Numbered from the whole stretch's first letter, positions 38 to 61,243 are shown. The stretch: 63,262 nucleotides of DNA, filler included, from Reclinomonas americana ATCC 50394 (GCA_048213135.1; 3 parts of 2 records of this genome joined end to end with filler, not necessarily neighbours in it); one strand, 5' to 3'. A program made the numbers and translations. Notes: generated from the sequence alone by a model not told the origin.

Positions 38-434
38 TTTTACGACGCCCAGAGCTCGGCGGCCTTTTTGAGTTTCGTGAATCTCCCAAAACTGAAGCCT
101 CCCTCGCCCACTCTTCTCACTTTCCTGACCCTACCTACAGACCGCGTGGCAAGACCACTCCTCATCCTCAACGCTCGTGACGACCCGCTCATCGACCCCA
201 AGCTGTTGCCGATTGATGAGCACCAAGCGAATCCCAATCTCATCTTTGCTGTCACCGAGTGGTGAGCCTGTGTGACTTGCAGTGGTGCTGTTGAGGAGAG
301 AGGAGTTGCTGACACACCACCACCGCCTGCGGAGTGGTGGACACGTGGGCTACCTGCAGGGTTTCAATAACGCGCGAACCTATGTCGACCGTGTGGCTGG
401 CGAGTTTTTCCACGCCGTACTGCAGTGCACATGA
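38..434 (+). CDS. 3' part of an alpha/beta-hydrolase (ABHD1/2/3-YheT-like), spliced, 5'-truncated by window edge
   Basis: Spliced reading FYDAQSSAAFLN|RVARPLLILNARDDPLI...VTEC|GGHVGYLQG...* contains the NAxDDP (catalytic Asp) and GGHVG (catalytic His) motifs of the family; introns 72-140 and 262-334. Confidence 0.85.
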
Positions 435-500
435 GCCACACACACGGTTTTCCCCTCCCGTGAAAAAATGGATTGCTCAGCTGTTGTTTTTAATAACTTA

Positions 501-3237: not shown

Positions 3238-5272
3238 TAGGGAGGGAGAGCGGGCGTAGGCGAGCGGCTCAATTGTGCTTGTTTNNNNNNNNNNNNNNNN
3301 NNNNNNNNNNNNNNNNNNNNNNNNNNNNNNNNNNNNNNNNNNNNNNNNNNNNNNNNNNNNNNNNNNNNNNNNNNNNNNNNNNNNNNNNNNNNNNNNNNNN
3401 NNNNNNNNNNNNNNNNNNNNNNNNNNNNNNNNNNNNNNNNNNNNNNNNNNNNNNNNNNNNNNNNNNNNNNNNNNNNNNNNNNNNNNNNNNNNNNNNNNNN
3501 NNNNNNNNNNNNNNNNNNNNNNNNNNNNNNNNNNNNNNNNNNNNNNNNNNNNNNNNNNNNNNNNNNNNNNNNNNNNNNNNNNNNNNNNNNNNNNNNNNNN
3601 NNNNNNNNNNNNNNNNNNNNNNNNNNNNNNNNNNNNNNNNNNNNNNNNNNNNNNNNNNNNNNNNNNNNNNNNNNNNNNNNNNNNNNNNNNNNNNNNNNNN
3701 NNNNNNNNNNNNNNNNNNNNNNNNNNNNNNNNNNNNNNNNNNNNNNNNNNNNNNNNNNNNNNNNNNNNNNNNNNNNNNNNNNNNNNNNNNNNNNNNNNNN
3801 NNNNNNNNNNNNNNNNNNNNNNNNNNNNNNNNNNNNNNNNNNNNNNNNNNNNNNNNNNNNNNNNNNNNNNNNNNNNNNNNNNNNNNNNNNNNNNNNNNNN
3901 NNNNNATTTTTCTTATTCCCGCCCTTTTTCGCCGTCTCCCTCACTGTTTTCCCCCGTTTTTCCACACACACGCAGGCTGGTGAGGCGGGCTACAGAGAGT
4001 TTGCGGATGAGCCGGGGCACAACGGGTCGGGCTCGCGCGTGGATCCTGTGCAAGAGTGGAGCACGTCCTCGTCGGAGGAGGACATGTCGCAGGGTGAGGA
4101 TTTGGATGAGGATGCCGACGAGTTGATGGTGGAAGATGATTCTGCGTCGGAGCCGGGTCGCTGGCAATCACTGCTGGAGGAGCTGCGAGTGTGCATGTGT
4201 GTCAAGCTGCACGACATCACACCGCTGCTGTACTGTGAGAACTTGCACTTTGTGGATCTCGCACACACCTCCATCAACAATGTCGCGGCACTGGCCGCCT
4301 GCACGCGACTGCAGAAGATCTACGTGCGCAACACCGCCGTCACCGATGTGGGACCGCTGCGCAATTGCCCGCTGCTGCGCACAGTCGACATTGCGGGCAC
4401 GGCCGTGATGGACATTAGTCCGCTCGCCTCGTGCCCCGACATTGTCAAGTTTGACCTGTCGTCCACGCGCGTGTCGAGCCTGGAGCCGCTCACGTGCATG
4501 CCCAGAGTGCGCAAGCTGATGCTGAGCAACACTCCCATCACGGTGTGTTTGGCCACATGTCTTTTGGCTGACTCCTTTCATTTTCTATTGGCGCTCACGT
4601 TTCACGCACAGGATTTGAGGCCGCTGCGCTCGTGCCAGAATCTGGCCAAGATCGACGTCAGCCGTACTCGCATCGAGTCACTCGAACCGCTGCACGGTCT
4701 CACCCAGCTGCGCTTTGTGGTGTGCTCCTACACGGTGATTCGCGATGTGCAGCCACTGGTGGGCGCACCCGAGTTGTCGTACGTCGATGTGGGATCGACG
4801 CAGGTGAGCGAGGCATTTATTACTTCACTTGGAAAAAAGCACTGACCTGGTGCTCCAATCGCAGGTCACGGATGTCAACGAGTTGGTGGCCTCGTGTCCA
4901 CGACTGCGCATGATTGATGTGTCGTCGTCTGGCGTGACCAGTGTCGACGTTTCACGAGCCCGACAGAATGTGCGCGTACGAGGAGTGCTGCGCCGCGAGT
5001 GGGGCCGCGAGACGTCGAGCTACGATGCCACGTTGACGCCGACGGCGCGCGCCGAGTACCAGCGTTTGCGCGATATCGGCTGCAGCGAGGAGGCCATCAC
5101 GAGGCGAGTGTGGGAACGACCACAGCACGTCGAAGTCGGCGATTGGCTCGCCGCCAACGTGGCATTCTTCTTTGAGCGCTGCATCTTGCTGTTCCAGTCG
5201 GTGTCGGCTCACTGCCGCGACGACACGTGCCTGCAGATGATGGGCAGTGTGCAGTTTCGTCGGTTGCCTGTT

Positions 5273-5325
<53 letters not shown>

Positions 5326-5794
5326 CCATCTGTGTTTGTAACGCATGTGTCTCCCTATCTTTCTCCTTCTCGGCAGCCACGAGTACTTGTGGAGCGACGG
5401 CAAGAATGTGAAGCGTCCAGTGCGCATGTCGGCACCGGCCTACATCAACTCGCTCTTCACGTGGATCAACAATCAGCTGTGCGATCAGCGCGTGTTTGGC
5501 AACTACGAGAAGAAGCGTTTCTACGATGCGGTCAAGTACATTTTCCGCCGCATGCTGCGCGTGCTGGCGCACATTAACTTTGTGCACATGCAACATCTCG
5601 ACTTGATACAGTTGCGTGGCGTGTGCTTTTTCCCGCCTCTCGCCGGCGAAGAGTCTAATCCTGTGTGCAGGAAGCGACGAGAGTTCCTCTACACGCTGCA
5701 GCACTTTGTGCAGCTGTGTGAGCGCTACAAGTTGATTTCGGATCGCGCCGACTACGACCCGGTACTGGTGCTCGTGCAGCAGTGGCTCTCGTAG
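2359..5794 (+). CDS. F-box + leucine-rich repeat + C-terminal MOB1/phocein domain protein
   Basis: F-box LLPPELVSHMLSFLSQDECLASPVRVCREWQAIV (2955-3060); LRR array (LxxLxLxxTxVxDxxPL repeats, 4180-4950); MOB domain DWLAANVAFFF...HCRDDTCLQM...HEYLWSDG...MSAPAYINSLFTW...IFRRMLRVLAHINFVH. The F-box to LRR link crosses an N gap (3285-3905). Confidence 0.8.
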
Positions 5795-6209: not shown

Positions 6210-7602
6210 TCAGACTTCCGCGATGAAGTTGCGTATCCGCTCCAGCAGCTCCTGCTTCACTTCCTCAGGCACCGACGCTGCGGCGGAGAAGGGGGGAATG
6301 TGAGAAAGGGGGTGGGGGAAGGGGAAGGGGGAAAGGGGGAAAGGCTGAGGTGCTGTTCGTGGAGGAGTTTATCAAGCAATCTTACAAGCGTGCAACATTG
6401 ACTAGTCTGCGGGTCTTCTCCGACTGCGGCGTATCTCTTCATGGCTGACAAAGGCACTCCGCGACACCCAACGTCTCACACTTTCATCTCTGGCATTCTC
6501 TGTTCATCAAAACAGCGAGGGCACTCTGCATTCCCTTGCGACAGCAACCCCTGCGACATCAACCTCTGGCGTTCTCTGTTCCTGAATCAGGTGACTTGCT
6601 TTCTTCTAATTACTAAAGGCGCAAGAATCAAGGGCATCAAGGCCGCGGCTCAGCAGCATTGCGTAGTCTCTCTCTCTCTGCTCCTGAATGCATCAAACCA
6701 GAAAGGGTGTCTTGCTTTCTCCTTGTTGACAAACAGCGCAAGACTCAAGGGCATCAAGGCCGCGGCTCAGTAGTGCTGCACCTCTCTCTCTCCCTCTCCC
6801 TCTCTCTCACTCTGAGCGTGATTGGCAAGGGTACTCTACTCTCCCTGTTGACCTTGCACATCAATCTTCGGGTTCTGCCCCGCTCTCCGTCTCTGCGTTC
6901 TCTTTTCGCGCACCAGTCGACGCAGCAAGGGCACTCTGCACTCCCCTGGATGGCAAGCAACAGGATGCAACATCAACGTCTCACTCGTTTCGAAACACCT
7001 CTCTCGCGCTCTCATTCTGAATGCATCGATGCAGCAGGGGCACCAAGGCCACNNNNNNNNNNNNNNNNNNNNGGCTCATCTCATTCTCCTCTCAAGCGCA
7101 ACACACGCCCCTGTCACTCCACGCACCCTCTCCCTCCCTCCCAACTCCCTGCTCTCTCTCTCTCTCTCTCTGACAGAGTCGGCACGCAACATCGTCCAAA
7201 CGGCGTGATCTCCGACACCAAATCATCCACCGTCGTCGCCTCCAATCCCTTCGACTTGATCACCTCTGCACACACACGCACACACATCAACACTCACTCA
7301 CTCTCTCTTACACAGACAAAACTCAAGAAAAACAAAACGCAACGTTTGCAATGCTGCTTCAAACTGTCTCTCCATCCACTCTCCCGCAAGCGAACCTCCA
7401 GCAGCTCCTTCAACCTAAACACACACACAAACACACACGCGCGTGAGATCAAAGTGACTTTCAACTCACACTTGCTCTCACTTTTCTCTCCACTCTCTCT
7501 CACACTCACTCACCGATCAAGCTCGCCGGTCTCCGCAAGCTTCTCATAGATCGTTTGCCGCACTTGCTGCTCTCGTTGTTTGCGCTCTCCCAGTGTGTCC
7601 AT
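6210..7602 (-). CDS. ENY2: Transcription/mRNA export factor ENY2/Sus1 (SAGA and TREX-2 subunit), 4 exons
   Basis: Spliced: [100 protein letters not shown], collinear with ENY2. Not assembled in the ORF track. Confidence 0.92.
6440..7050. repeat. Degenerate internal repeats within the ~910-nt third intron of ENY2
   Basis: Recurring tcaagggcatcaaggccgcggctcag (~6628, ~6745), gggcactctgca (~6519, ~6929) and ctgaatgcatc (~6685, ~7017). Confidence 0.7.
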
Positions 7603-9219: not shown

Positions 9220-10248
9220 TCACTTGTCGCGCTTGGAGACAAAGCCGGCAGTCGGCGGCGCAATGTGAATCAGCAGGAACTGCGCCGCCAAGTACGTCAG
9301 CATGACCCACGTGTGCTGGAAGGGAATGGTGGCGGCACCAAAGTTGCCAATGGTCAGCAGCAGATCGGAGACCACAAAGCTGAGGCCACCGAAACGCGAC
9401 AGCGAGCCGACCATGGGCGAGGCCGAGGAGCCCGCATCGAGCGCACGCCAGGCGGTCGTGGTGAGGAACGTCACATAGACAACGCACGGAATGCGGATAT
9501 CCTCCGGCACGTACTCCCACAGCCAGAAGCGGAAAATGCTGTGCGTAATCGCCTCCAACACGAGCAACGTCACCCAATTGCGCGGGTAGCCGCGGCCGCC
9601 AGGTCCACCGAAAGTGAAGGCGTAGAGGTAGCCGAAATGCGCAATGAGGAACGACACCATGCCCAGCATGAAATACAGCATGTCGCCGGGGAAGAGCAGG
9701 AAGGCATCGCCGGCCAGCGAGAACACCGTGGCCAGCAGGCGGCTCCAGCGGAACCATGCCGGCGCCGGCTCTTGCAGGACCTGCACACACACAGAGAGAG
9801 AGAGACAGGTGAGGGAGACAACGAGACTCGAGAGCGTGGTCTTGTCTTGCGCGCAACGTAGATCGAGAGAATCTGCGACGTTCAATCAGCCAATAGCAGC
9901 GCACAAGAAAACGTAAGACATGTGTGACGTACCACAAGCGGCCACAGTTTCTGCATGAGAGAGACAAGAGAGTGCAAGTGTGTGAGACAAGACAACAATC
10001 GGACACGGGTCATTTCTCTCACCGTGAGGAAACCCGGGCCGTGGTTGATCTCATTGAGCAGATGCAGCGCCGAGGCGGCAATATACGACGAGCGCACCAG
10101 TGTCTGCGCGTGTGAGTGTGAGTGAGTGTGACAGACAATGTCCCGAAAAACGCACACGCGCGCATGCAGAACGCTCTGCGGCACTCACACACACTCTCTC
10201 CCTCACACTCACCAGTGAGGCCGAGGCCTGTTTCTTCTCGGAATGCAT
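9220..10248 (-). CDS. Lysoplasmalogenase-like membrane protein (TMEM86/YhhN family)
   Basis: FSLAGDAFL...YFMLGMVSFLIAHFGY...LSFVVSDLLL...VMLTYLAAQFLL are YhhN motifs; upstream micro-exons KLWPLV (9950-9933) and ILSIY (9872-9858). Confidence 0.9.
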
Positions 10249-10898: not shown

Positions 10899-13800
10899 TT
10901 GTATCTCTCTCTGTCATCACTGATGGTTGTCTCTTTTCAGCGTCCTCGGCCTCTGGCGCTCGCCTATCGACGCGCGAACTGGAACGCGAGGCTCTCATTC
11001 GCAAGTACGCTGTGCGCAAGCTCAACCCCAATGAGGCGGCGCGGCGCAAGGTCGCACTCATCCCGCCGCCGTCGCTGCCGAATTTTCTCACCATGACCCG
11101 ACAAGGGAGGCAGGGTCGTCCAAAGACGTTGAGTCCTCCTCCTCCTCTTGTCTCATCAAGTTTTCCTTGTTCTTCATCTGGATCCTCTTCCTCCTCCTCT
11201 CCATATTCTCCTTCTTTTCTTCTTCTTCTCCTCCTTCCTCTTGTTCTTCTCTCTGTTCCTCCTCCGTCTCCTTCTTCTTCTCCTCCTCCTTATTCTCCTT
11301 CTTTTTGTTCTTCTTGTTCTTCTTGTTCTTCTTGTTCTTGTTCTTGTTCTTGTTCTTGTTCTTGTTCTTGTTCTTCTTCTTCTTCTTCTTCTTCTTCTCC
11401 TCCTCCTCCTCCTCCTCCTCCTCCTCCTCCTCCTCCTCCTCCTCCTCCTCCTTCCCCACCCTCTCATTTCCCTTCCACAGTGGCACTGGCCTGTCGATGA
11501 TCTACCCCCCACCCAATCTCATTCACTCGGTACCGCGCTTCCCCGAGCCCATGTATCCACCACGCCCGGGTCTTGGCATGGACATGGCGGCGCACGACGC
11601 AGTCAAGGCCAAGAGCAAGAACCTGCTGCTGGTCAATCGGCTGGTGTATGACTCGATGGAGCATGGCACGGAGGGCGATTTGGTGGGTGATTTCTCTGCA
11701 TGCATGATCTGGATAGGGTGCAGAAGCGGATGTATTCATTCCTGCGTTTGTAGAAATTGTTTGGCAAGCAGGGTATCTACAAGGGTCGTCTGGGCCACGG
11801 TCCCACCAGTGAGGGAGACTCGCCGGCGGCACCGATTGTGTCCAAGTTGCGACTCGCTACTCGGAGGCTTCTCATCTCTCAGTCCCTGTGTACTGGCTCC
11901 TGCTCACTGCAGATCTCTTTCTTGTGACGCACTCATGTTCTTGTGTTGGTCTCGTCTTCACATCGATTTCCGTTGTTGCTGTACTCGCTGGCAGTGTGTA
12001 GTGTATTCACTCTCTCTCCGAGACGCACACCGCTCCTTACTGTTCTTGCTCATGCTGTTATCTATGTCTCGTCCTCACCTTTATGCTGTCTATTCACCTT
12101 GCTCTCTCTCTCTCTCTCTCTGCGATGCACCCGTTTCTGACTCTTCCTTCTTGCATTTGTTAACCTCGCGTTTTTCCCCTTTCTGCTGACTCTACACCTA
12201 ACCTTCTCTCTGTTCCCCTTCCCATTCATCCCGTTTCCCATCATCCCCGTCCCTTTTCCCTTCGTCCCCTTCCCTTTTGCCCTTCCCTTATCCCATCACC
12301 CTCTTCTCCGACATCCTCTTCTTTCACGTCTCTTCCCTTCCACCCCCTTCCCCTTCTCCCCCTTCCCCTTCTCCCCCTTCTCCTTCCACCCCCTTCCCCT
12401 ATATCTCCCTCATTTCCCTTCCACCTCGTAGCCTTGGCGTGGCCGGCTCGATGGCCGGCCGCCACCAAGACGAGGCCGTCGACCTGCCGCCCTACTACAA
12501 GGTGGTGTCGCCGGAGGACACCACCCTGGTGTTTGAGAGTCGATACGAGAGCGGCAATCTGCGGCGGGCGATTCAGATGTTGCGTGTGGCAGCGTCCTTT
12601 CTTTTTGTTTTTCTCGCTTGCTCACGTGACGCTCAGCTACGAATTCGAGTACGAGCTGATTCTCAAGTTCGACGTCAACACTCGCGGCCACACCCAGTGG
12701 TTCTACTTTTCCGTGTCCAACACACGCAAGGACACCAAGTACAAGTTCAACCTCATCAACCTGCTGAAGCCCGACTCGCTGTACAATCACGGAATGCGAC
12801 CGGTGATGTACTCGGTGCACAACTCGCGCACGAAGGGTCTGTTTGTGCATCTTGCTGCGGCGCGACTGGATGAGCACGTCGCTAACGCGTCGTGACGTGC
12901 GCAGGCGAGGGTTGGGTGCGTGGTGGCTTCGACGTGTGCTACTACCAGAACCGCATCAAGCGACAAAAGGGCTTTTACTACTCGGCCACGTTCTCCATCA
13001 AGTTTGATCGTTGCGCGCAGCATCTAGCAAAGCCTGTGCTGTGTGGGAAACTGATGTATGTGTGGGTACGGCACAGACGACTTTGACACGGTCTACTTTG
13101 CCTACTGTTATCCGTACACATACACCGACTTGCAAGAGTTGCGGCAGTCACGCTCTGATGAGATCACTATGAGCTGCGTGCTCATGTCTCTCCCTTCTCT
13201 CAACAGTTATCTGCAAGCACTGGAAGACAATCCCGAGACGCAGTCGAGATTTCGTCGGCGGACTTTGTGCCAGACTCTCGCCGGCAACAAGTTGCGCTCT
13301 CCTTCTTCATCGTGGAACACGCACGCTACGTTCCTGATCTTGTCTCTTCCGAATTGCACAGCTGCGACCTGTTGACCATCACATCGTTCACCTCCGACCC
13401 GGAGTCGCTACGGCGGCGAAAAGGAGTGGTCATTAGCGGTCGGGTACATCCGGGCGAGAGCAACTCCAGCTGGATGATGAAGGTGTGCGCGCGCGCGATG
13501 CAAACCCTTCCGTTAATCATTGTTAATCACCGACCGATCGTCGTGCACGCCGCCGCAGGGTGTCATTGACTTCCTGCTCGGTCCGTCGCTGGACGCCAAA
13601 ATCCTGCGCGACAACTTCATCTTCAAGATCGTGCCGATGCTCAACCCAGATGGTGTCATCAACGGCAACTATCGATGTTCACTGGCTGGTGCGCATTCTT
13701 GGACCGGTGCGCATGTTTTGCACTTCATGTATCTCAACCCCGTGTGTGCCAGGTGTTGATCTCAACCGTCGATGGATGGAGCCGAGCAAGAAGCTGACGC

Positions 13801-16406
13801 CGACCATTTACTCCACCAAGATGGTTCTCCACCCTGCCATTTCTGTCTTCTGTGCTGCTGTCTCACGTCCTTCTCTTGCTGTGCAGATGATCAAGCGATT
13901 CCTCGAGGACCGCGAAGTGGTGCTCTTCTGTGACCTGCACGGGCACAGCAGAAAGCACAACATTTTCATGTACGGTTGCGAGAATCGAGACTCGCCCGAG
14001 GCTCGCCTCAAGGAACGCGTGTTCCCCAAGTTCTGTGTTCTCTTTCATCACCATGTGTGTGTATGTGTGTGTGCACCCCGTGCTCACCATTCAGGATCGC
14101 AGGCTGCTCTCGGAGCTCTCAGACACGTTCTTGTTCCGCGATTGCAGTTTCCGCGTGCAGAAAGCCAAGGAGTCCACTGCTCGAGTTGCGCCATCCATTG
14201 TTGTGTGATTAGCTGGCCTCAGTTAGACCAACATGGCGGCGGCAGGTTGTCGGATGGAGGGAGCTGGGCATCTTGAACAGTTTCACCATGGAGGCCACAT
14301 TTGCCGGTGCGACCGAGGGGCCCTACGCAGGCGAGCATTTCACCACACGGCATCTCGAGGTTGGATGTGGCATCGAAGCTTGTAATATCTGTATTGCTGT
14401 CGCTGATCTTTATTTCCCTCCAGGAAATGGGTCACCAACTGTGCNNNNNNNNNNNNNNNNNNNNNNNNNNNNNNNNNNNNNNNNNNNNNNNNNNNNNNNN
14501 NNNNNNNNNNNNNNNNNNNNNNNNNNNNNNNNNNNNNNNNNNNNNNNNNNNNNNNNNNNNNNNNNNNNNNNNNNNNNNNNNNNNNNNNNNNNNNNNNNTC
14601 TCTCCCTACTTCGATCTTTTGATTCTCGTTTCCCCCTCCGTTTCTTCCCCCTCTCTACCTTCTTCTTTACTTCTCCCCCTTTTCTTATTCGATTGTTGAT
14701 TGCCGTCGCAGGGTCGAATCGCCACGGTTGGAGGAGCTCCAGTCGAAGGAGTACTCATTTGATCTGCTCAATGCTGGTGCGTCGATGTTGATTTCGTGCT
14801 CTCTCTTTGCTTTCTTCTCACCATTTGTGATCCGCACAGGCCAACTTCGACGGTACGCACATTATTTCTGCACCTTTTTCTGTGCATCATCTCTTCTGTT
14901 GTTTTGTTGTGGCGCAAGATACGAGCATACACACTTCTTACCTGCAGTGATGTGCTGATTAGGCGGCGACCTGACGATGCTCGCTTTGCGAGTGGCGTCG
15001 ACAGTGACGGTGGCGTTGGCGTTGATGTTGCGTGGCTTAGAACAACGACAATTATCGTTTACTCTCGTTGGTTCCGTCTCTCACGTCGTGATGGTCACCA
15101 TATGCACAGGGAACACCTCGCGCTCCCTCCAACAGTCGTGTGGTGAGCTGCTCCACCCGAGAATCAGAGTGTTGCGTATTATAATTGTCTCACACTTCGC
15201 CCACCCCACCGCAGCGCCCTGTCAGCGCTGGCTCACCCAGCCGCGGTCATTCGCGACGGTCCTCGACACTCGACGCAGCCGGCGAGTACCGTTGTGTCTC
15301 TCTGCCGGTCGTCGATTGCGGTGTGGAGTTGCTCACGTCGGCCTCCCCGTCGCAGAGTTTGGTCCCGACCAGGAGTACATGATGCGCTACCGCCAGCTGT
15401 ACGAGGAGGCTCTGCGTGGCAATGCATCGTCACGGTGCGCAAATGCGTGTGTATGTGTCTTCATGTCACTATCATGCGCCTCGTATTCATCGCCACCTTT
15501 GCTTGTCAGCGCACGAGCCGAGCAGACCGCGCAACAGCAGCTGCACGATTTGCAAATGTTGCACGAACTGCAGCACTTGCAGAGATTACAGATGATGGCC
15601 ATGGCCGCCGCCACTGATGGAGGTGGACATGCGATGCACGAATCGGCGGCTTCGCGATCACGATCGCCCGCCGTGGTACGCTCTACGGGTCTCATGGCGT
15701 CGGCGGGAATCACCACCACCGGCGCCCTCGCTGTTGACGTCTATCATCCCGGCCGCAGTCAGCCAGGGGCGCCAGTGGGTGGCGCGTCCTCCACGGGTGC
15801 CTTTGCGACGGCTTCGCCTCACGAGCGCAGAGCTCCATCTGTGCAAGGGCAAAGCTCGTCGCCGTTGCGTTTGTGTGTCATCATTCCTCACCACACACCA
15901 ATCGGGGTGTGTGTTTGTGACTCACGAACATCTGTATTGCCGTGCCAGTGCCGTGCCAGCAAATCCCATGTCGACAGCCGCCGCTGTGGCTGCCGCTGTG
16001 GCCGCCAGTGCTGCTGCGGCGACAGCATCGTCTGCACCACCTGCCAGCGGCAGCAGCAGCAGTCGCCCGACCTCAGGCGTCTCGCGACCCGGGTACTATG
16101 CGCTGACGCCGGCTCTGTACCGCTCCGAGATTGCACTGGTGCGTGTGAGTGAGAAGTGAAGAAGATGGACGCCGGAGGCAATGTGACTCACCCACTCTCT
16201 CACATCATCGCAGGATGAGATGATGAACTCACCTGCATCGCCATCGCATCCTGCTCGACCAACTGCCAATGTTGCGTGCGATTGCCGTGTTGTCGAATTT
16301 GTGTGTGGCTCACACTCTGCGTGCACAGTTGCCGAGGCTCGTCTCCAAGGTCAAGTCCGTGAAGTGGCGACCAAAGGACGACAAGTATGATGTGCGGTTA
16401 ACGTGA
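10546..16406 (+). CDS. Cytosolic carboxypeptidase (M14D, CCP/AGBL tubulin deglutamylase family); catalytic region ~12432-14444, flanking exons tentative
   Basis: Spliced motifs [87 protein letters not shown]. Attachment of the 10546-11685 and 14710-16406 exons to this gene is inferred across gaps. Confidence 0.9.
11135..11452. repeat. Pyrimidine-rich triplet/hexamer low-complexity tract ((TTC)n, (TTCTTG)n, (TCC)n), intronic
   Basis: Direct reading; lies between predicted exons of the CCP-region gene. Confidence 0.9.
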
Positions 16407-16729
16407 TGTGATGATGTATGAAGAAGAAGAAAGTGTATGTACAAAACACCGACAATCTCCCCTCCTGGCAGCATGCTGAGATTATGTTGTATACATGTCG
16501 ATTGCGAATGACAACAAACAACTCGGAAGGAGAGAACAAAGACAAGCGAAAAAAAAGAAGGAAAGATAATAGAGAGTAGGGCGAAACAGTTAGTGGGTAG
16601 AGTGGTGAGGATCAACAAGAGAAGAAGAGTACACACTAAAAGACAATTGCTTGTATGCGCCCATCGAGTCCGCGTGGTGGACGCGAGGGTCAATCACTTT
16701 TTCTTGTATCCATCGCGCAACCGTCAGCG

Positions 16730-25770: not shown

Positions 25771-25904
25771 GAGGAGAAAGGGGGTGTGAGGTGCGTCAGC
25801 ATGCTGGTGATGCTCGACTGGCCACGCAACACAGCGAGTGCCTGCATGGCAGTGTCCTTTNNNNNNNNNNNNNNNNNNNNNNNNNNNNNNNNNNNNNNNN
25901 NNNN

Positions 25905-29715: not shown

Positions 29716-30149
29716 TGGGACNNNNNNNNNNNNNNNNNNNNNNNNNNNNNNNNNNNNNNNNNNNNNNNNNNNNNNNNNNNNNNNNNNNNNNNNNNNNNNN
29801 NNNNNNNNNNNNNNNNNNNNNNNNNNNNNNNNNNNNNNNNNNNNNNNNNNNNNNNNNNNNNNNNNNNNNNNNNNNNNNNNNNNNNNNNNNNNNNNNNNNN
29901 NNNNNNNNNNNNNNNNNNNNNNNNNNNNNNNNNNNNNNNNNNNNNNNNNNNNNNNNNNNNNNNNNNNNNNNNNNNNNNNNNNNNNNNNNNNNNNNNNNNN
30001 NNNNNNNNNNNNNNNNNNNNNNNNNNNNNNNNNNNNNNNNNNNNNNNNNNNNNNNNNNNNNNNNNNNNNNNNNNNNNNNNNNNNNNNNNNNNNNNNNNNN
30101 NNNGCACGACACAAAAAACAATGCAAAAAACACGCACGAGACACGCAAC

Positions 30150-39362: not shown

Positions 39363-41268
39363 TTATTGGTGATCATGAGTTGTCGATGAACTTTCGTCAT
39401 GATTGCGATCGTCGGCGTCTCCTTCCGGTTTCGAGAACGCACTGCGCATAGGCATCTCTGCCTTTTCTTCGATAACCTTGTGACAGCTGCTCCTCCGTCT
39501 CCTGTCACTTGGTCTCCTGCATCTCCCACTCGCGGCGCCCGCTACGAAAGAAGGCACCAGTGTCATTGAAATTATCCCCATCATCGTCGTCGTCGTCGTC
39601 GTCTTCGGCGTCGTCAAAGGCGAAGCGCCGCTCATTGTCGGCTGACCAGTCACCGCCGGCCGCGTCCATACGACGCGAGTGCAGGCGCATGCTGCCCGGC
39701 GCGTGATCCACGGGTGGAGCACCATACGATTCGGCATACAGGGCGGCGAATCGATGAGCCGCCATGTACAACAGTGCGTCTGTGAAAAACATGTGAACAG
39801 AGAGGGAGAGAGAAGGGGCGAGCGAAGACTGCCCACTGTGCGCATACCGAGCACCCAGATGCCATTCGAGAGCACATTCAGCAGATCGCACAGTTGCTGG
39901 CCGGAGGCCGGAAAGCGGAAAGCCACCCAGTTGCAGAGCGTGGCCAGCTGCGAAAAGATCACCGAGCCCAACACGTACAGCAAGTCGGCCCAAAATGTGC
40001 AGTCGGGCAAGTACTGCGCACCAGCAGCCACAATGAGCGCACGAGCAAGGCGGCGGCGGTGAGACAGAGTGGGTCACACAACAATCAGCTGTCGCCGACG
40101 CAGCAGCTTCGGATCAGCGACTTCGCGACGAATCTCCTCGAGAGTTGGTGGCGGCCGTGATGGTCTCAGACTGCGCGAAAGAATCGTGTGTCAGCGAGAC
40201 GACGATCGGTGAAGGCAGGTACGTGGTTCGTTCGCCACACCGAAAGATCTCGAATCGCACAGGGCAGCCGAGCTGCACTTCGGCTCGATGATTGATGGCC
40301 CAATGAATGAGGCAGCACAACGACACCGGCACGAAAAAGTACGACATGGCCATGTTGAGCGAGTTGTAAAACTCCCTGCATGAGCAGTGTGAAATGACGA
40401 TCGCACAAGTGTGTGGGACACGGAACCGTGCGCAACATCGAGTACCCCGGACGCAGCGACACCAGTGCCAAGTACGTGTAAAACAATTGCGCCACAAAGA
40501 ACCCCAGTGCCGACAGGCCGTACTGCAGCGAGGAGGAGAGATGAGCGGACAGTGGGGAAGGAGTGAGAGAGAGAGAGAGAGATGCACGCAACCCAGTTGA
40601 TGCTCTCCAGCACACGCATGAGCACACTGCTACCTGTGCCACCGCCATACATGGGCCACGGGGCCATTCGCTGCGCCTGCACCGTCTCCAGCAGATACAA
40701 CAGCGTATCCTGTACACGCAATGAGTACGAGCAGCGTAATCCACACTGCGCATGGCCGCACACACCGTCTGGTACACCAGAGTCGCCCAGAAGCTGATGC
40801 CAAGCGACGCAGAGACGCACTGATTCGACCCATCGACACCGCCACCACCACACGCCCAACTGCGCAGGCCACGTTAAACAACAACGAACCACTGAGAGAA
40901 TCGACAGATCGCGCACTTCAACAACGCCGCCAGCGCGCCAAAGCTCGCCGCCACCAGGAACACCACATTGGCCCACCACGACCAGGCAACGCGATCAAAA
41001 AACGACAACTGTGTTGGTGTCAACACGCTCTCTCTCAACTAGAACCATTTTGTGTGGTTGTCAACACACCTGCTCGTCTGCCGAGTGGTGCGCAGGTGGT
41101 GAGGTGGCGTCAAACAGCACCTCCTCGTCGTCGCCACCATTGTCGGCGTCGGGGTCGTCGAGGACGTGCAACGCGTGTGCCGCGCGCAGTGGTGTTGCAG
41201 AGGCGGTCGATCGCTTGGAGTGGGATCGTGGTCGCCAGATGGTGGTGCTGCAGCGTGTGCGCGTCATG
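39363..41268 (-). CDS. Multi-pass membrane protein, possibly YrhK-like repeat family
   Basis: Several hydrophobic exons (YGLSALGFFVAQLFYTY; FWADLLYVLGSVIF; LLNVLSNGIWVLDALLY) joined by plausible GT-AG introns; family assignment is by pattern resemblance only. Confidence 0.55.
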
Positions 41269-41528
41269 CCGACGTAGCGAACCACTTGCGGCTGCAGGGG
41301 CGCTGTGTGTGTGTGAGAAACAGAAGGGAGTGTGTGAGTGTGAGTGAGCACACGCAACCAGGTGACGCCGCATGGGCAAAGGGTGTCGCATGCATGCGTG
41401 TGCTCTTGTCTCCTCTCCTCTTCTGTCGTCGTGGTTGTGGCCACGCGGCGAAAAACGCGAGTTTTTGTGTTCGCGCCCTTTCCGCGGCGGTCATTCGACG
41501 CCCCGTTGTTTGCGGAGAGGATAGTCGA

Positions 41529-44797: not shown

Positions 44798-46571
44798 ATG
44801 TGGCTGAAGTGAATTTGGGCGGGATGTGGGGGTGTTTAGTGCGTTTCTCCCGGCGGCGGTGATCAACCCGATGGAGAGTGAGCGGCTCATTCAAGAGCTG
44901 CGGCAGTTCGAGCTGAAGGACGTGGGCACACCACGGTTTCGTACCTCTTCTTGTGTGTCTTTCCTCGCGCAGCAGCAGCAGCAGTTTGACGCGATGCACA
45001 GTTTCGTGATGCAACTGGAGTGGGTGTCGAAGCTGAATCTGCAGGCGCACCACTCGGCCGCCGTCATGGAGGACGAGTTTGTGGTGGAGCAGCTCATCTC
45101 GCATGACAAGGTGAGTCGGCGACGTGGGGGGGAGGCAGTGAGTGATCCAGGCGCGCGTGGCTGACACGCACACCGNNNNNNNNNNNNNNNNNNNNNNNNN
45201 NNNNNNNNNNNNNNNNNNNNNNNNNNNNNNNNNNNNNNNNNNNNNNNNNNNNNNNNNNNNNNNNNNNNNNNNNNNNNNNNNNNNNNNNNNNNNNNNNNNN
45301 NNNNNNNNNNNNNNNNNNNNNNNNNNNNNNNNNNNNNNNNNNNNNNNNNNNNNNNNNNNNNNNNNNNNNNNNNNNNNNNNNNNNNNNNNNNNNNNNNNNN
45401 NNNNNNNNNNNNNNNNNNNNNNNNNNNNNNNNNNNNNNNNNNNNNNNNNNNNNNNNNNNNNNNNNNNNNNNNNNNNNNNNNNNNNNNNNNNNNNNNNNNN
45501 NNNNNNNNNNNNNNNNNNNNNNNNNNNNNNNNNNNNNNNNNNNNNNNNNNNNNNNNNNNNNNNNNNNNNNNNNNNNNNNNNNNNNNNNNNNNNNNNNNNN
45601 NNNNNNNNNNNNNNNNNNNNNNNNNNNNNNNNNNNNNNNNNNNNNNNNNTGTTTTCTCACTGGAACGGTGCAGATGTTGGAGGAGCAGGAGCAGACGCTG
45701 CGCTTCTCGCTGTGCATGACAGCCATCAATCTCTTGCGGTTCATCACCGACTTTGCGGGCGCGCACGGCTCACTATCGGTGGTACATCGCATGTTGGATA
45801 CGCACGACTTCCCGGTACTGGTCAGCTACCTGCTTGAGGAGCGGCCATGGATGCGACGTGACAATGGCCTGCTGAAGAAGTGGGTGGATGGCGACTGGAA
45901 GAGTGTGGCCGCCGACGACTCTCTGCGTGTGTGCGGCACCGAGGTGCAGGTGCGCTGCAGGGCAATCGGTTGTGGGGAGCTCGTGTGCGCCGCCATGCAT
46001 CCGACTGACCCGATTCTCTCGCAGGTGTGGTTGGCCTTCAACAATCTCATTGTCGATCGAGCCTACAGCAGCAAGTACAAGTACGAACCACCGAAAGCAG
46101 TGTATCACACGGGCACGCAAGTGGATCAACGAAGTGCTGGTGGACCAGATCCCCGTTCTCGTCGACCTGCAGCGAGCGCTGGAGGAGCTGCTGATTATGG
46201 ATCCGGGCATTGGCGACAACTCGAGGCTGATGATGGTGCAACAGGTACGGTGTCGCATCACAAAGAGAGACTCGCACACAACAGTGCTGTCGCTTGTCTT
46301 GTGCGCGTCCAACTCACTGCACGCTCGCGCACAGGTGCCGGAGGTGCGCGATGGATTCATGAAGGTCAACTTCCGCGCCTTTATCGACGAGTACCGAGCG
46401 TGGTTGGCGCGTCTGTCGCCGGACGACAAGCAGCGCGTGTTTACCAGTTTGGCCGACATGTTTGGTGCGTTTGATGTGGACGAGAGTGGTGGTGCTGGTG
46501 CTGGTGAGGCCAAGGGCGGAGCGTCGTCCTCGTCGAAGCCCGGCAAGCAACCGCTGGTGCAGGCGCTGTAA
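44798..46571 (+). CDS. ZMYND10: ZMYND10/BLU-like axonemal dynein assembly factor (internal gap; apparent frameshift near 46088; no MYND finger seen)
   Basis: ESERLIQELRQFELKDVGT...SKLNLQAHH...DEFVVEQLISHDK; LRFITD...HRMLDTHDFPVLVSYLLEERPW; EVQVWLAFNNL; INEVLVDQIPVLVDLQRALEEL match ZMYND10. Start codon uncertain. Confidence 0.85.
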
Positions 46572-46633: not shown

Positions 46634-47680
46634 TTATTCGCCTCCCACCATTAGCAACCGAGGCACCGGGACAGGCAGCATAACATTCGCCGACGCACTC
46701 CGCGGCTGCGATCTCTGGCTGTGCTGCGCGGGAGGCGGTGGTGCTTGTTGCTGGTCAGCAGCAGCTGCTGCTGCTGCTGCTGCAGCTTGCTTGCGTCGAC
46801 GGGTAAGGGGCCCCTTGCTGGCGGTCGGTGGTGTCTCCAGATTCACCGAGGGATCCCACCTTACGCGCTTCGGCGGCGATTCCGATTGAGATCGCCGCAG
46901 CATGCATTTTTCCTCGGCGGCGACAACAGTGACCGGGACGGATCCTGGATCGTAGCCCAGGTGGCGCACCTGCCGGGCCGATTCGGGGGTGACAGTCGGC
47001 TGTGCCACGCCCTCAAACAGGAATTTGCGCGATTGCAGCGTTCGTGGTGGTGGTGGCATGGGAGTTGAAGGCTTGAAGGAGTTTGCGGCGGCAGCGTCGA
47101 CAAACAGGCGACTGCAGCAGGCGCAATTGCGGTGCCGAATGCGGGGTGTGTCGGTGCCAGCGCCGGCGCACGTGTGCTCCTGCGATGGAGGTGGTGGTGG
47201 TGGTGGTGGCGGCACGCTGTCGGCCATTGATTCCAGCGTGATTTGCAGGGGGGTGCCGGCGAGTGTCACGTCCTGCAGCGAGGCGGCATTCATGGCCGCG
47301 TCGTACTCCTGTGAGGTGGAAAGAGGAGGAGGAGCAGGCACGGTCAGACACGAGCGTGTGGGAAGGGGGGAAGGGGGGAAGGGAAAGGGAGAGGGAGCTT
47401 GACCTTGAACACGCAGACAGCATGGCGGAGGCTCTCGCCAGTGGCCGGATCTCTCTTGACGCTGATGGTGTTCGTCAATCCTTCTGCTCAACACAGACAC
47501 GCGTACTTTACACATGGACGCAACAAAAGCTTGTCAATGGTGCCAAACGGTGACAGGATCGCGTAGAAATCAGCCTATAAAAATGCGGATCACATTCAGC
47601 GATGAGTGGCCATGTGATGGTGGAGACGAGCACGCATCGACTCACCTCGGTCAGTGTCTCGCAGGGATGTCTTACTGTGA
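46634..47680 (-). CDS. RRM-domain protein with low-complexity C-terminus (5' exons uncertain)
   Basis: Spliced ISVKRDPATGESLRHAVCVFK|EYDAAMNAASLQDVTLAGTPLQITL resembles the RNP1-containing half of an RRM. Confidence 0.6.
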
Positions 47681-56300: not shown

Positions 56301-58836
56301 GCACAAAAGATGGCGACGAACGAAAATGAAGAGAGAAAGGCGAGCGAGTGCGAGAAGCGGGAGTCGGTGAAAAGGGGGAGTTATAAAGTGCACGACACAC
56401 GAACCAATCAACACGCGCACACGCAGGCACACAAGAGAGAGCCACCATCACGGAACAGAGGATGGTGGTGAGCAACAAAAGAGACTAAAGAAAAAGGAGA
56501 GCAAGAGTTGCACGGCTTGGGCGTTTTCATGCTGCATGGCGCCGAATCAAACATGCATCACACCACGCACGACCACTGAGGCACAGGCGCACAGAGGAAG
56601 TGAAAGGTAGCGCGGAGAGAGCGCAAAGGGGAAAAGAGGGGAGCGAGAGGGAGAGAGTGAAAAGAAAAACGGCAGGGGAGTTGGGATGAAATGTCACATG
56701 TCCATGGCCAAGAAAAATCAAACACCACAATGCACAGCAAAGAAAGGAGAGGCTGGGGGGAAGGGAGGAGAAGAGGGTGCGTGGTGGGGGCAAGCGAGTG
56801 GATGGAAAACAAACCATTGTAAAATAAAGAAGTGGCTTCCGCGCTTGCGAGTTGCAAAAAAAGGAGACGAGGTGGCGATCGATTGGCTGGACAGGTGGAA
56901 TCTCGCCACCTCAAATTTGGAGCGGACATGAGAACCCGGCGCACTGTGCCGCATGTGATGCGCCTTCACCTCTGCATACCAGCCGCGCTCTTCTTTTCAT
57001 CCGTGTATGGTCGAAAGCGCGAGAAAAAATCAAAGTTTTCGCGTGCAAGATTCGACCGTTTGTCTAGAAACAAAAGGCCAATCAATAATTTGGCGCGCGC
57101 ACGCCGCTTTCCCACTTCCTGCGCCGCAACTGCGGTGCGCTGCGGTGCATTGCACGTCTGCACCTCGGCAAAACTGAGCAACGCGCAGGTATTCTCCGGC
57201 AAACCGACACGTGAAACGCCTCCAAGCCGGCCAAGTCGAACAACGGCCGGCTGCTCGCGGCAAGAGTGCCGTTGCGGCCGCGCGTTGTTTGTTCCAATTT
57301 TTTTACACATTCTGTGAGCCATGGTTGGTGCTGATCGAACTGCTTCTTTTCCGCGTGTCTTCTCCTCTCTTGTTTCAAATCCACTCCAGTATCTCGCTTG
57401 ATCTCCCTGTTGTCGCGTGGTGCATGCACTTTTTGTGTGTGCAACATGTGCGCGCGCGTTTATGTTTGTGTCTTTCTTCTCTCCCCACTCAGCGCCTCTC
57501 ATCCCTCGTTCGCCCCCACCATCTTTTGCANNNNNNNNNNNNNNNNNNNNNNNNNNNNNNNNNNNNNNNNNNNNNNNNNNNNNNNNNNNNNNNNNNNNNN
57601 NNNNNNNNNNNNNNNNNNNNNNNNNNNNNNNNNNNNNNNNNNNNNNNNNNNNNNNNNNNNNNNNNNNNNNNNNNNNNNNNNNNNNNNNNNNNNNNNNNNN
57701 NNNNNNNNNNNNNNNNNNNNNNNNNNNNNNNNNNNNNNNNNNNNNNNNNNNNNNNNNNNNNNNNNNNNNNNNNNNNNNNNNNNNNNNNNNNNNNNNNNNN
57801 NNNNNNNNNNNNNNNNNNNNNNNNNNNNNNNNNNNNNNNNNNNNNNNNNNNNNNNNNNNNNNNNNNNNNNNNNNNNNNNNNNNNNNNNNNNNNNNNNNNN
57901 NNNNNNNNNNNNNNNNNNNNNNNNNNNNNNNNNNNNNNNNNNNNNNNNNNNNNNNNNNNNNNNNNNNNNNNNNNNNNNNNNNNNNNNNNNNNNNNNNNNN
58001 NNNNNNNNNNNNNNNNNNNNNNNNNNNNNNNNNNNNNNNNNNNNNNNNNNNNNNNNNNNNNNNNNNNNNNNNNNNNNNNNNNNNNNNNNNNNNNNNNNNN
58101 NNNNNNNNNNNNNNNNNNNNNNNNNNNNNNNNNNNNNNNNNNNNNNNNNNNNNNNNNNNNNNNNNNNNNNNNNNNNNNNNNNNNNNNNNNNNNNNNNNNN
58201 NNNNNNNNNNNNNNNNNNNNNNNNNNNNNNNNNNNNNNNNNNNNNNNNNNNNNNNNNNNNNNNNNNNNNNNNNNNNNNNNNNNNNNNNNNNNNNNNNNNN
58301 NNNNNNNNNNNNNNNNNNNNNNNNNNNNNNNNNNNNNNNNNNNNNNNNNNNNNNNNNNNNNNNNNNNNNNNNNNNNNNNNNNNNNNNNNNNNNNNNNNNN
58401 NNNNNNNNNNNNNNNNNNNNNNNNNNNNNNNNNNNNNNNNNNNNNNNNNNNNNNNNNNNNNNNNNNNNNNNNNNNNNNNNNNNNNNNNNNNNNNNNNNNN
58501 NNNNNNNNNNNNNNNNNNNNNNNNNNNTTTGAGTTTTGTGGGAGTGGTGAAGGATTTGTACTCTGTGTGTTTAGTTGTGGTCTCTGAGGCTGTGTCGGTC
58601 TTCGGCTCGGCTGCGTGTTTGTGCCAACGTGTTCAGTGTGAAGGAGTGAGGCAGTCGATTTTTTTGACTGCTGCTTTTTTCGTGTACGTTTGTTTGTGCA
58701 AGCGTGTGGAGGGAAATGAAATCGAGACGAATCCTCGGGAAACTCTTCCTCCTCCCATGTCTCCAACGTTTGATTTACGCAATGCCCCACCCACACATAC
58801 AACAAACAAACAAATTGCTCCTCCTCCTCCTGCTCC

Positions 58837-61243
58837 TTAGCCGCACACTTGCTTCAGGGCCTTCTCGAAAATTTCGAGTCCCTCGTCGATCTCGGCACGG
58901 GTGACGACCAGCGGCGGCACCCAGCGGTACACGTTGCCGTCTGCGCGCAGTGACGCACAATAATAGTGTGAGTGCGACAGTGCAGAGAAAAACCGGGAGC
59001 AATATCGTGTGCGTGATTTTCGCAACAGAGTCCGCAGACGAGCAGCAGCAGGCGGTTGTGGATCAGGTGAGGCTTCATTGCCGTCACAGTGTTGGCGTCG
59101 GGCTTGCCGTCCTTGGTGGTGAACTCCACACCCACCATGAGTCCGCGGCCGCGGACGTCGCCAATCACCGGGTACTTGCGCTGCGCACACGCACACACAC
59201 AACCACCTGAGTGCCACGCGACTTTTCTCTCGCGGACTGCAGGAGCACGGACGCACCTGCAATTCGCGCAGTCGCTGCATGAGGTACTCGCCCTGCACGC
59301 GAGCGTTCTCAATGAGGCCCTCCGACTGGATCACGTCAATGGTGGCCGACGCCGCAGCAATGGCCACGGCGTTGTTGCCTGCGAAATCAACGGTAAGGAT
59401 CACACAGCGAAAAGACCAGCAAGCACAGCGCACGCCCGTCACCATTATAGGTGCCGCCGACACTGCCCTTGACCAGCTTGTCGTGGAACGAACGCGGAGC
59501 AGCAATGGCGGCAAGCGGCATGCCCGACGCAATACCCTTGGCCATGACAATCATGTCCACCTCGATGCCACTCTCCTCGTGCGCCCACATGCTATGTGTC
59601 TGACGTGAGAGAAGGCACCAATAGAGTNNNNNNNNNNNNNNNNNNNNNNNNNNNNNNNNNNNNNNNNNNNNNNNNNNNNNNNNNNNNNNNNNNNNNNNNN
59701 NNNNNNNNNNNNNNNNNNNNNNNNNNNNNNNNNNNNNNNNNNNNNNNNNNNNNNNNNNNNNNNNNNNNNNNNNNNNNNNNNNNNNNNNNNNNNNNNNNNN
59801 NNNNNNNNNNNNNNNNNNNNNNNNNNNNNNNNNNNNNNNNNNNNNNNNNNNNNNNNNNNNNNNNNNNNNNNNNNNNNNNNNNNNNNNNNNNNNNNNNNNN
59901 NNNNNNNNNNNNNNNNNNNNNNNNNNNNNNNNNNNNNNNNNNNNNNNNNNNNNNNNNNNNNNNNNNNNNNNNNNNNNNNNNNNNNNNNNNNNNNNNNNNN
60001 NNNNNNNNNNNNNNNNNNNNNNNNNNNNNNNNNNNNNNNGCATTACACACACGAAAACACGAACCGTCCCGAACGCGCAAAGCCACTCTGCACCTCGTCG
60101 GCAATCAGCAGGATGCCGTGCTTGTCGCAAATCTTGCGCAGTCCCTGCAGGTAGCTCGGCGGGCACGGAATGTAGCCACCTGCGCTCGTTCATTGTCAGT
60201 CACCACACACACACACACACAGCAAGACATAGCCGCACAGCACGAACCCTCGCCCTGAATCGGCTCAATCACAATCGCAGCCGTCTCCTCCGGCGGGCAC
60301 CGCGTGTGCAAAATAAACTCCAACTGGTTGAGGCACATCTTGACCGTCTGCTCCTCGCTCATTCCCTGCTCCGTCTTGTAGCGATACGAGTACGGGAACG
60401 GCGCAAAGTCAATGCCACCCGGCAACTGACCAAACCGCTGGCGGTAATACAAGCGACTCAGCGTCATGGCCATGCCTGCATGCTCGGTGAGTGACACGGA
60501 ACAAAACAACGTCAAGCACTCAATGCCCAGCGCAACTCATGTACAATCGTCCATGGAAAGCGCCCTCGTAGCAGATAATGTAGTTGCGCCCGGTGGCCGC
60601 ACGTGCCAACTTGACAGCGTTCTCCACGGCCTCAGAGCCCGAGTTGGCTACACAAGGCGGAGGTCAGCTGTGAAGAACAACAGTATGCAACGCAAAGGAC
60701 GCAACTAAAGATGAGCGAGTCGAGCTTGCGCGGCACCAACGCCAGCAGCTTCTCCGTCAGCTTGAGCGTCGGCGCACCCAGGTAGCAGCTGGCCTGCGTC
60801 AGAAGCACCTGCGCAGCCTGATCCTGAATCGCCTTGACCACCGTCGGGTGGCAGTGACCCGTGCTCGTCACACCTGCAACCCCACCCCGAGTGAGTCTCT
60901 TGTATGTGCATGTGTGTATGTGTGTGTTTCTCTCTGTGTCTCTCACCAATACCACTGGTGAAATCGAGATAGCCGCGAGAGTCGCCACCGACAGTGTAGA
61001 CGCGGCATCCGCTGCCCTTCTCCACCACCAGTGTCTCTGCAAAGCGACCAATGGCGGGGCTCATGTTCTGCGCGAGGCGGTCGTAGGGCGCAGGAATGGG
61101 CGGCAACTGCGGGGCAGTCGACGCGGAGAACGCGCGACGAAGAGTCTGTGTGTGTGGAGAGAGGAGAGAGAGTGAGATGTGTGTGCATGTGAGTTGTGTG
61201 TGTGTGTGTGTGTGCGGAATGCAACTGTGAGAAGTGGTCGCAT
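58837..61243 (-). CDS. Class-III PLP aminotransferase, 4-aminobutyrate aminotransferase (GabT/PuuE)-like, with mitochondrial-type presequence
   Basis: [108 protein letters not shown]-terminus [15 protein letters not shown]. Confidence 0.92.

Follow-up and report, generated by a model that had tools for sequence, protein, structure and literature searches.

GTTGCG-type 5′ splice sites and the exon-end base in an intron-dense nuclear DNA window

Gene content and donor classes of the window

The window analysed here is nuclear DNA from an intron-dense eukaryote. It spans 63,262 bases, of which 6,723 are N in 21 blocks, its GC content lies between 33% and 59%, and we describe a class of 5′ splice sites (donors) in its protein-coding genes. 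Pfam matches to single exons identify LRR-Mob1, FYVE/PH, YhhN-family, cytosolic carboxypeptidase (CCP) and kinesin genes, genes for a long coiled-coil protein, an EF-hand protein, a PALP+ACT enzyme, GTP cyclohydrolase I (GCH1) and an ankyrin/zf-MYND protein, and WD40, class-III aminotransferase, ENY2 and eL38 genes. In the gene models introns occur about once per 170 coding bases, have a median length of about 68 nt and carry a CTCAC-like branch site about 19 nt upstream of a CAG acceptor. Their donors fall into two classes: class 1, the ordinary donors of the G/GTNNGT type (the slash marks the cut), and class 2, donors of the GTT..G type with T at +3 and G at +6.

Introns were predicted with a gene finder that combined a three-periodic coding model with a 3′ term (branch motif, acceptor and length), and its donor information consisted of GT only; an earlier gene finder built on codon usage alone was too noisy and was replaced. 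The donor-blind parse was refined (round 3) with a donor term that scores +5 G or +3 T/+6 G equally and ignores the -1 base. The refined parse holds 162 introns and recovered 16 of the 18 junctions validated by then, missing the other two. For spliced alignment of proteins to the DNA we used BLOSUM62 and a flat intron penalty, and required only GT or GC at the start and AG at the end of an intron. The aligned homologues comprised 34 sequences for CCP (several from transcriptomes), 30 bacterial and intron-free sequences for the aminotransferase and 18 distant ones for PALP. These alignments and Pfam coordinates gave a validated set of 40 introns in seven genes. Eighty metagenome loci, whose identity of no more than 78% in the most conserved exon is too low for a close relative, were retained solely as a negative control, and none of the 106 gaps or introns that the aligner inferred in 18 unrelated metagenome loci was of class 2. 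Two metagenome loci with a carboxypeptidase homologue, L002 and L003, have introns only 31-33 nt long, each preceded by A and with GTAAGG, GTACGT or GTATGT as the donor; these tiny introns belong to a different organism.

In the validated set, all 15 donors that follow A, C or T are of the GTT type (13 GTTGCG, one GTTCTG and one GTTTCG), whereas none of the 25 that follow G belongs to the GTT..G class (Fisher p = 2.5e-11). The predictions divide in the same way: G precedes 65 of 79 class-1 donors and 2 of 23 class-2 donors in the donor-blind parse (p = 1e-10), and 90 of 114 against 4 of 37 in the refined parse (p = 1e-13), and the split persists inside each intron phase. An association between a non-G exon end and +3 T/+6 G had been proposed in a sequence-only reading of the window, and within the window it is borne out. 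GTTGCG is not enriched window-wide, since the two strands together hold 70 copies where dinucleotide frequencies predict 58.7; it is the commonest donor hexamer of the donor-blind parse, at 19 of 135 donors (14%) against 0.93% of GT hexamers (binomial p = 6e-17), and stands at 28 of the 162 donors of the refined parse, in which class 2 as a whole makes up about 23% (37/162). The class-2 donor exists, is common, partitions with the -1 base and is found in otherwise ordinary introns.

The same reading had held that donors of this kind are used when the exon does not end in G. That class 2 is real, common and tied to a non-G exon end stands; the stricter sense of the rule does not, as G at -1 is not depleted but merely unselected. 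It precedes 4 of 37 class-2 donors and 6 of 43 GTTGCG copies that are not donors, and because the first proportion equals this background, the exon-end G of class 2 is unselected rather than avoided. In class 1 the exon-end G reaches 79%, against a background of about 20%. An unselected -1 base is what would be predicted if class 2 were read one base out of register.

Junctions fixed by homology and candidate sites

Three genes carry most of the validated junctions. In the CCP gene 11 introns were placed by the aligner, with junctions that are gap-free over 6 residues to either side in nearly all homologues and identity of up to 82%; beside those listed in Table 1 as class 2, the remaining five donors all follow G (GTCTGT, GTGTGC, GTGCGC, GTTCTC and GTTGGA). 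All seven introns of the aminotransferase gene were placed by 29 or 30 of the 30 homologues, three of them at GTTGCG (after A, A and T) and four after G. The PALP/ACT gene (threonine-dehydratase-like) has 17 introns placed with its 18 homologues, all of which contradict a predicted class-1 donor after non-G at 27736. At 28395-28403 (+) this gene has tandem donors three bases apart (GTCGTTGCG), both in frame, and the choice between 28395 and 28398 may make the 5′ splice site alternative by one codon.

Profile coordinates fix further junctions. Between exon 2 of ENY2 (profile 17-39) and exon 4 (66-83), the gap corresponds to exon 3 plus two split codons, given the donors 7343 and 7190. The gene finder missed the whole ENY2 gene because its third intron is 913 nt long and contains an N block. 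This intron (6278-7190, -) is more than ten times the median length and holds dispersed copies of a GC-rich motif of about 35 nt in addition to the N block. In the LRR-Mob1 gene the gene finder first picked another donor in place of 5254, and the Mob1 profile coordinates fit 5254. Two G/GTGAG donors of the kinesin gene are contiguous in the kinesin profile.

The sequence-only reading had listed 34 sites (21 GTTGCG donors, eight related donors and five exceptions), and the motif and the preceding base are present at every one of them. Among the 21 GTTGCG sites, 13 are fixed by homology, one is favoured, five were placed by the gene finder only, two are undecided and none is refuted. Beyond that list the window contains no fewer than 11 additional class-2 donors, so that the observation is stronger than first noted. 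At 5611, the rival donor 5623 is equally compatible with the loop length, and the last exon of the Mob1 gene has no Pfam or PDB match. At 30149 the next exon lies under N, and the read-through piece gives a weak, ambiguous match only.

The related and exceptional sites fared unevenly. Homologues (30/34) uphold 14030 and Pfam arithmetic upholds 5254, and the gene finder places 35496 and 22543; exon 2 of eL38 is too short to score, which leaves the junction at 35496 to the gene finder. The GTTGCA at 61225 was used by 0 of 30 aminotransferase alignments and is not supported as a donor. The gene finder did not pick 22169, 34739 or 33732, and site 72 belongs to a weak gene model at the window edge. 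As to the exceptions, 40592 (G/GTTGCG) and 44936 (G/GTTTCG) were kept by the gene finder, and 33732 (T/GTGAGC) is the one just named as passed over.

Table 1. Donor sites and introns discussed in the text. Rows marked candidate, and those for which the gene finder is named as evidence, come from the gene finder only; round 3 is the refined parse with its register-neutral donor term. "Added" marks sites that were not on the list of the sequence-only reading, "exception" those that it had listed as exceptions; aa, amino acids.
Site	Gene	Coordinates	Strand	Evidence
Class 2, T/GTTGCG	CCP	12579..12636	+	34/34 homologues; gap-free ±6 aa in 33
Class 2, C/GTTGCG	CCP	13010..13076	+	33/34; gap-free 33
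Class 2, A/GTTGCG	CCP	13138..13206	+	33/34; gap-free 32
Class 2, A/GTTGCG	CCP	13291..13361	+	33/34; 82% identity ±6 aa; missed by gene finder
Class 2, A/GTTCTG (shifted twin of G/GTCTG)	CCP	14030..14102	+	30/34
Class 2, A/GTTGCG	CCP	14185..14245	+	33/34
Class-1 example, G/GTCTGT	CCP	12837..12904	+	27/34
Class 2, A/GTTGCG	Class-III aminotransferase	60648..60705	-	30/30 bacterial homologues, all gap-free; Pfam 88/92 contiguous
Class 2, A/GTTGCG	Aminotransferase	60476..60536	-	30/30; Pfam 132/135 contiguous
Class 2, T/GTTGCG	Aminotransferase	58941..59026	-	29/30; gap-free 28
Class-1 example, G/GTGCGT	Aminotransferase	59181..59256	-	30/30
Class 2, A/GTTGCG	PALP/ACT	27375..27448	+	13/18, all 13 gap-free
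Class 2, C/GTTGCG	PALP/ACT	28398..28464	+	8/18 vs 8/18 for GT at 28395; gap-free 8/8 vs 0/8
Class 2, A/GTTGCG	PALP/ACT	29148..29215	+	16/18
Class 2, A/GTTGCG	EF-hand	26580..26650	+	Spliced product has an exact 12-residue EF-hand loop; EF-hand profile 4-18 stops at exon end
Class 2, A/GTTTCG	LRR-Mob1	5254..5376	+	Mob1 profile contiguous (58+1+1, then 61) only with 5254
Class 2, C/GTTGCG	ENY2	7266..7343	-	EnY2 profile 17-39, then 1+24+1, then 66-83: contiguous
Class 2, T/GTTGCG	ENY2	6278..7190	-	913 nt including N run; same EnY2 coordinate arithmetic
Candidate class 2, A/GTTGCG	Mob1	5611..5670	+	Gene finder; in-frame rival donor 5623
Candidate class 2, C/GTTGCG	YhhN-family	9781..9857	-	Gene finder, rounds 2 and 3
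Candidate class 2, A/GTTGCG, added		11846..11994	+	Gene finder
Candidate class 2, T/GTTGCG, added		15027..15225	+	Round 3 only
Candidate class 2, C/GTTGTG		15291..15355	+	Round 3
Candidate class 2, T/GTTGCG, added		16271..16328	+	Round 3
Candidate G/GTTGCG (exception type)		16650..16721	-	Round 3
Candidate class 2, C/GTTTCG	Coiled-coil	22483..22543	-	Gene finder
Candidate class 2, A/GTTGCG	Coiled-coil	22895..22962	-	Gene finder
Candidate class 2, C/GTTGTG		23247..23339	-	Round 3
Candidate class 2, A/GTTGCG, added		23614..23679	-	Gene finder
Candidate class 2, T/GTTGAG		25351..25432	-	Gene finder
Candidate class 2, T/GTTGCG, added		25764..25830	-	Round 3
A/GTTGCG after GTP cyclohydrolase I exon	GTP cyclohydrolase I	30144..30149	-	Motif present; exon matches GCH1 up to here; N block follows
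Candidate class 2, C/GTTGCG, added	Ank/zf-MYND	32797..32868	-	Gene finder
Candidate class 2, T/GTTGCG	Ank/zf-MYND	34419..34480	-	Gene finder
Candidate A/GTTGGG	eL38 (RPL38)	35496..35570	+	Gene finder; exon 1 matches eL38; fits both registers (+5 G, +6 G)
Candidate class 2, T/GTTGCG		37200..37260	+	Gene finder
Candidate class 2, T/GTTGTG		40014..40082	-	Gene finder
Candidate class 2, C/GTTGTG		40273..40321	-	Round 3
Candidate class 2, T/GTTGCG		40376..40436	-	Gene finder
G/GTTGCG, exception		40523..40592	-	Gene finder
Candidate G/GTTGCG		41303..41358	-	Round 3
G/GTTTCG, exception		44936..45001	+	Gene finder
Candidate class 2, T/GTTGCG, added		47462..47524	-	Round 3

Register of the class-2 motif and how it may be read

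Class-2 and class-1 introns have median lengths of 67 and 69 nt, and a GC content of 54% in both. A yUnAy branch motif is present in 33 of 36 class-2 and 109 of 115 class-1 introns at a median of 18-19 nt from the 3′ end, with CTCAC and CTCAT in both classes, and the acceptor is CAG, the -3 base being C in 32 of 36 class-2 and 98 of 115 class-1 introns. Beyond base 8, 10-mers are shared by 14 of 630 class-2 pairs and by 140 of 6555 class-1 pairs, and class-2 introns occur in 17 of the 27 predicted genes, intermixed with those of class 1. Because lengths, branch site, acceptor and sequence sharing match class 1, the class-2 introns are neither a family of mobile introns nor introns of the minor spliceosome. 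They resemble U2-type GT-AG introns, in that removal of the 40 validated introns restores the reading frame of conserved proteins, and not the U12 type: the donor is GTTGCG rather than RTATCCTT, and the branch site is CTCAC or CTCAT rather than TCCTTAAC-like. The phases 0/1/2 are distributed as 8/13/15 in class 2 and as 61/39/15 in class 1, a difference that is expected if class 2 permits introns at codon positions that are seldom G.

When the cut is moved by one base, /GTTGCGTG parallels G/GTGCGTG at each position. The consensus is G/GT-(G)-(C, T or A)-G-(T or C)-(G) for class 1 and H/GTT-(G)-(C)-G-(T or C)-(G) for class 2. Class 2 (n = 37) has G at +4 in 33 donors, C at +5 in 31, T at +7 in 22 or C in 12, and G at +8 in 16; in class 1 (n = 114) the corresponding counts are 70 for G at +3, 45 for C at +4, 67 for T or 30 for C at +6, and 46 for G at +7. 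Each of the minor variants of class 2 is matched by a class-1 twin: GTTTCG and G/GTTCG, GTTGAG and G/GTGAG, GTTCTG and G/GTCTG, GTTGTG and G/GTGTG. The alignment of /GTTGCG to G/GTGCG, as first proposed, holds, and the parallel reaches on to +7/+8 (T or C, then G) and to the minor variants. In addition, the -1 base of class 2 resembles the -2 base of class 1. Judged by these sequence statistics, description of class 2 as a shift of register is well supported.

Class 2 varies much less than class 1 at the two variable positions, as is expected if one mismatch must be compensated. Donors of the N/GTGCG type account for none of the 15 validated donors after non-G, and since they are absent there, a G two bases ahead of the paired U, be it exonic or intron +1, seems to be required. 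Four validated class-1 donors after G are nearly without intron consensus (GTTCTC at 13824, GTACTT at 28282, GTCTCG at 29325 and GTGACG at 59442). The class-1 signal seems to be carried mostly by the exon-end G and the GT.

Elsewhere, donors without a -1 G compensate with a stronger intron part in the same register (+5 G). The likeness is that the intron part is stronger where the -1 G is missing; the difference is that in the window the intron motif is displaced as a whole, by one base. Shifted-register GUUAAGU 5′ splice sites were reportedly described in mammals by Roca and Krainer in 2009. These sites share with class 2 a GU followed by +3 U and +6 G, U1 pairs moved by one and G+1 in the place of exon -1. 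They are rare in mammals, whereas here the class is the rule after non-G and has the share of predicted donors given above; the mammalian consensus is GUUAAG against GUUGCG, and the resemblance is one of donor sequence. What we find in the window is +3 U/+6 G with the downstream consensus moved by one base and a -1 base that is no longer selected for G. Bulged and asymmetric-loop U1 registers are said to have been reported by Roca et al. in 2012, and a study of unc-73(e936) is said to have found a -1 cryptic donor, cut one base upstream when G/GU becomes /GUU. That site is reported to be cryptic, to arise by mutation, to lie out of frame and to be used inefficiently, and differs in this from the normal, in-frame site seen here.

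In the C. elegans allele unc-73(e936), mutation of intron +1 from G to U uncovers cryptic sites nearby, and factors of the tri-snRNP (a complex of small nuclear ribonucleoproteins, snRNPs) such as SNRP-27, which is concerned with the U1-to-U6/Prp8 hand-off, tune the choice between adjacent donors, with +6 G at many of the promoted sites (PMC6140464). In human, all validated noncanonical U1 registers together make up 1.5% of 201,541 sites in another study (PMC4856993). If the rest of the genome is like the window, class 2 would be the normal donor of introns that number in the hundreds to thousands. The nearest lineage-wide case is the tunicate Fritillaria borealis, for which the authors report non-canonical splicing throughout the lineage and raise a shifted U1 register as a possibility (PMC13326754). 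It is alike in being a lineage-specific rewrite of the donor rules, but differs in that the GT/AG rule is abandoned there and the modification of small nuclear RNAs (snRNAs) is changed, whereas GT-AG is kept here. Among the literature matches listed, in which subscription journals are thinly covered, no description of a GTTGCG/GUUGCG donor class was found for any organism.

The best fit to these patterns, which we rank first and hold to be somewhat probable, is one recognition element that is read in two registers. The GT-AG introns would share a single 5′ element, G-K-U-N-N-G-U, in two forms. Where K is G, GU would lie at element positions 2-3 and the cut would fall after the first G, to give G/GUNNGU (mostly GUGCG, GUGAG and GUGUG). 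Where K is U, the sole GU would lie at positions 1-2 and the cut would fall before the first G, to give H/GUU(G)(C)G(U or C), overwhelmingly GUUGCG. In class 2 the intron G+1 would then replace the exon-end G, the conserved G would come to lie at +6 and the true -1 base would be free. Class 2 would be read one nucleotide off register, first by U1 snRNA with its 5′ end and afterwards by U6, like mammalian GUUAAGU. Opposite the U1 position that normally faces exon -1, a G would be all but obligatory, and the U mismatch at the next position would be compensated by the near-invariant GCG.

Several points weigh against this reading. When folded against a canonical U1 5′ end, class-2 donors average -1.3 kcal/mol and class-1 donors -5.9 kcal/mol; the model class-2 consensus folds in the shifted register at only -1.5 kcal/mol, most of the 37 class-2 sites adopt other weak pairings, and N/GUGCGU would pair better (-3.9 kcal/mol), yet it is not what occurs. 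Because class 2 pairs weakly in any register, shifted pairing to an ordinary U1 is insufficient as an explanation. The strong +5 C has no partner in canonical U1, and at catalysis the U6 contact would likewise have to be shifted or bulged. The evidence base is 63 kb of one genome, and the validated genes were those flagged by the sequence-only reading, which inflates the class-2 share of 15/40 and leaves the association unaffected. The gene-finder set also contains 24 class-1 donors after non-G and four class-2 donors after G, and some of the former may be genuine exceptions. Many of these 24 predictions are slips within GT repeats, and for this reason the -1 rule is probably sharper in truth.

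On the pairing data, either U1 would have to differ, or the U1-snRNP and later factors (U6, U5, Prp8, SNRNP27-like) would impose the rule, or both. Tentatively, with doubt slightly outweighing confidence, we propose that the spliceosome routinely reads two registers, in which the place of the exon-final G is filled by the exon or by intron G+1, by way of a changed early recognition. Either the 5′ end of U1 could pair with GCG (e.g. through G/C where the two pseudouridines normally lie, or through an additional base) or the U1-C, Luc7 or Prp8 contacts could be altered, and the U6 contact would tolerate one extra nucleotide at the catalytic centre.

The U1 of the lineage may itself be different, with a 5′ end that matches GUUGCGU throughout (class 1 then being bulged and rescued by the exon-end G) or with two U1 variants, which we consider unlikely. 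Such a U1 would account for the greater uniformity of class 2 at +4 and +5 compared with class 1 at +3 and +4, for a +5 C that lacks a canonical partner, for the poor pairing of class 2 with canonical U1 and for the degenerate intron parts that class 1 tolerates behind a -1 G in the four donors named above. The U1 5′ end is, however, among the most conserved RNA sequences of eukaryotes, and the one-base parallel between the classes is simpler with one reader in two registers. Less likely again is that U1 pairs with G+1 and U+2 in the normal register and an extra U at +3 (or +2) is bulged out, the register known as bulge +2/+3. The downstream pairs would be identical to those of the shift, and nearest-neighbour rules prefer stacked G:C/U:A pairs plus a bulge over an isolated G:C beside a mismatch. 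Bulged and asymmetric-loop registers, which likewise place an extra nucleotide between GU and the U1-paired downstream G, have been validated in human cells according to Tan et al. 2016 (PMC4856993). In such a register selection should favour a -1 G, which would contribute one more pair, yet this G stands at background; N/GUGCGU, the same helix unbulged, should be better or at least as good, and is not used by any of the validated non-G donors.

Two further explanations set aside the register altogether. A historical origin of class 2, by descent from a family of mobile introns (introners) or through some insertion process in which GTTGCG was carried along, is very improbable: the extreme intron density of the genome would suit it, as would the three class-2 introns among the seven of the bacterial-like aminotransferase gene, which would have been gained in the lineage if that gene was transferred, but past the first 7-8 bases there is no extra sharing of sequence, and in length, branch site, acceptor and mixed occurrence across genes class 2 equals class 1. 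That the GTTGCG sites are artefacts of gene modelling, with the real junctions nearby, is hardly credible and already largely refuted here. The two validated donors missed by the gene finder, and the five of 21 GTTGCG sites that it alone places, would fit such an error; the 13 fixed GTTGCG junctions do not, since each is held either by alignment without gaps to 18-34 homologues or by profile coordinates that match exactly, nor does the excess of GTTGCG among donor-blind predictions over its share of GT hexamers.

Shifted and bulged U1 registers have so far been rare oddities of mammalian splicing, and here, if the reading in two registers is true, they would concern about one donor in four, under a rule that the last base of the exon sets almost deterministically. 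The genome would then offer a natural experiment on how the cut site is chosen when U1, U6 and GU disagree by one nucleotide, with a bearing on why an exon-final G is preferred and on whether this preference restricts intron positions. Introns might follow any base, which may have helped to reach the extreme intron density. On the practical side, gene finders trained on one donor model would put about one junction in four of this DNA in the wrong place; the donor-blind parse missed or shifted 13291, 5254 and 5611.

Other features of the window

The aminotransferase gene (58840-61064, -) has 44 matches, all of them bacterial, the best at 60% identity and with Chloroflexi-type names. Yet it carries at least seven spliceosomal introns, three of them of class 2, and may have been transferred and then have acquired introns in this lineage. 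The best named relatives of the CCP exon are scattered (Percolomonas, Acrasis, Stylonychia and Guillardia), and a protein search with a lineage-specific exon of 453 amino acids gave no relative. Among the matches in the protein collections searched, none was identical to the window's own exons, and Atlas look-ups gave generic kinesin and WD40 clusters only. LRR_4 repeats and a Mob1/phocein domain apparently lie in one gene model (4084-5791, +), an unusual pairing. The YhhN-family gene model (9858-9950, -) has two predicted micro-exons of 18 and 15 nt among short introns.

An Rfam scan of the 63-kb window had tRNA-Leu as its sole match and returned no snRNA gene. The lone tRNA-Leu (AAG) gene lies at 41529-41605 (+) between protein-coding genes. 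The region 45000-62300 is AT-richer (GC down to 33%), heavily masked with N and gene-poor compared with the dense genes to its left. Runs of (TG)n and (GA)n are very abundant throughout the window.

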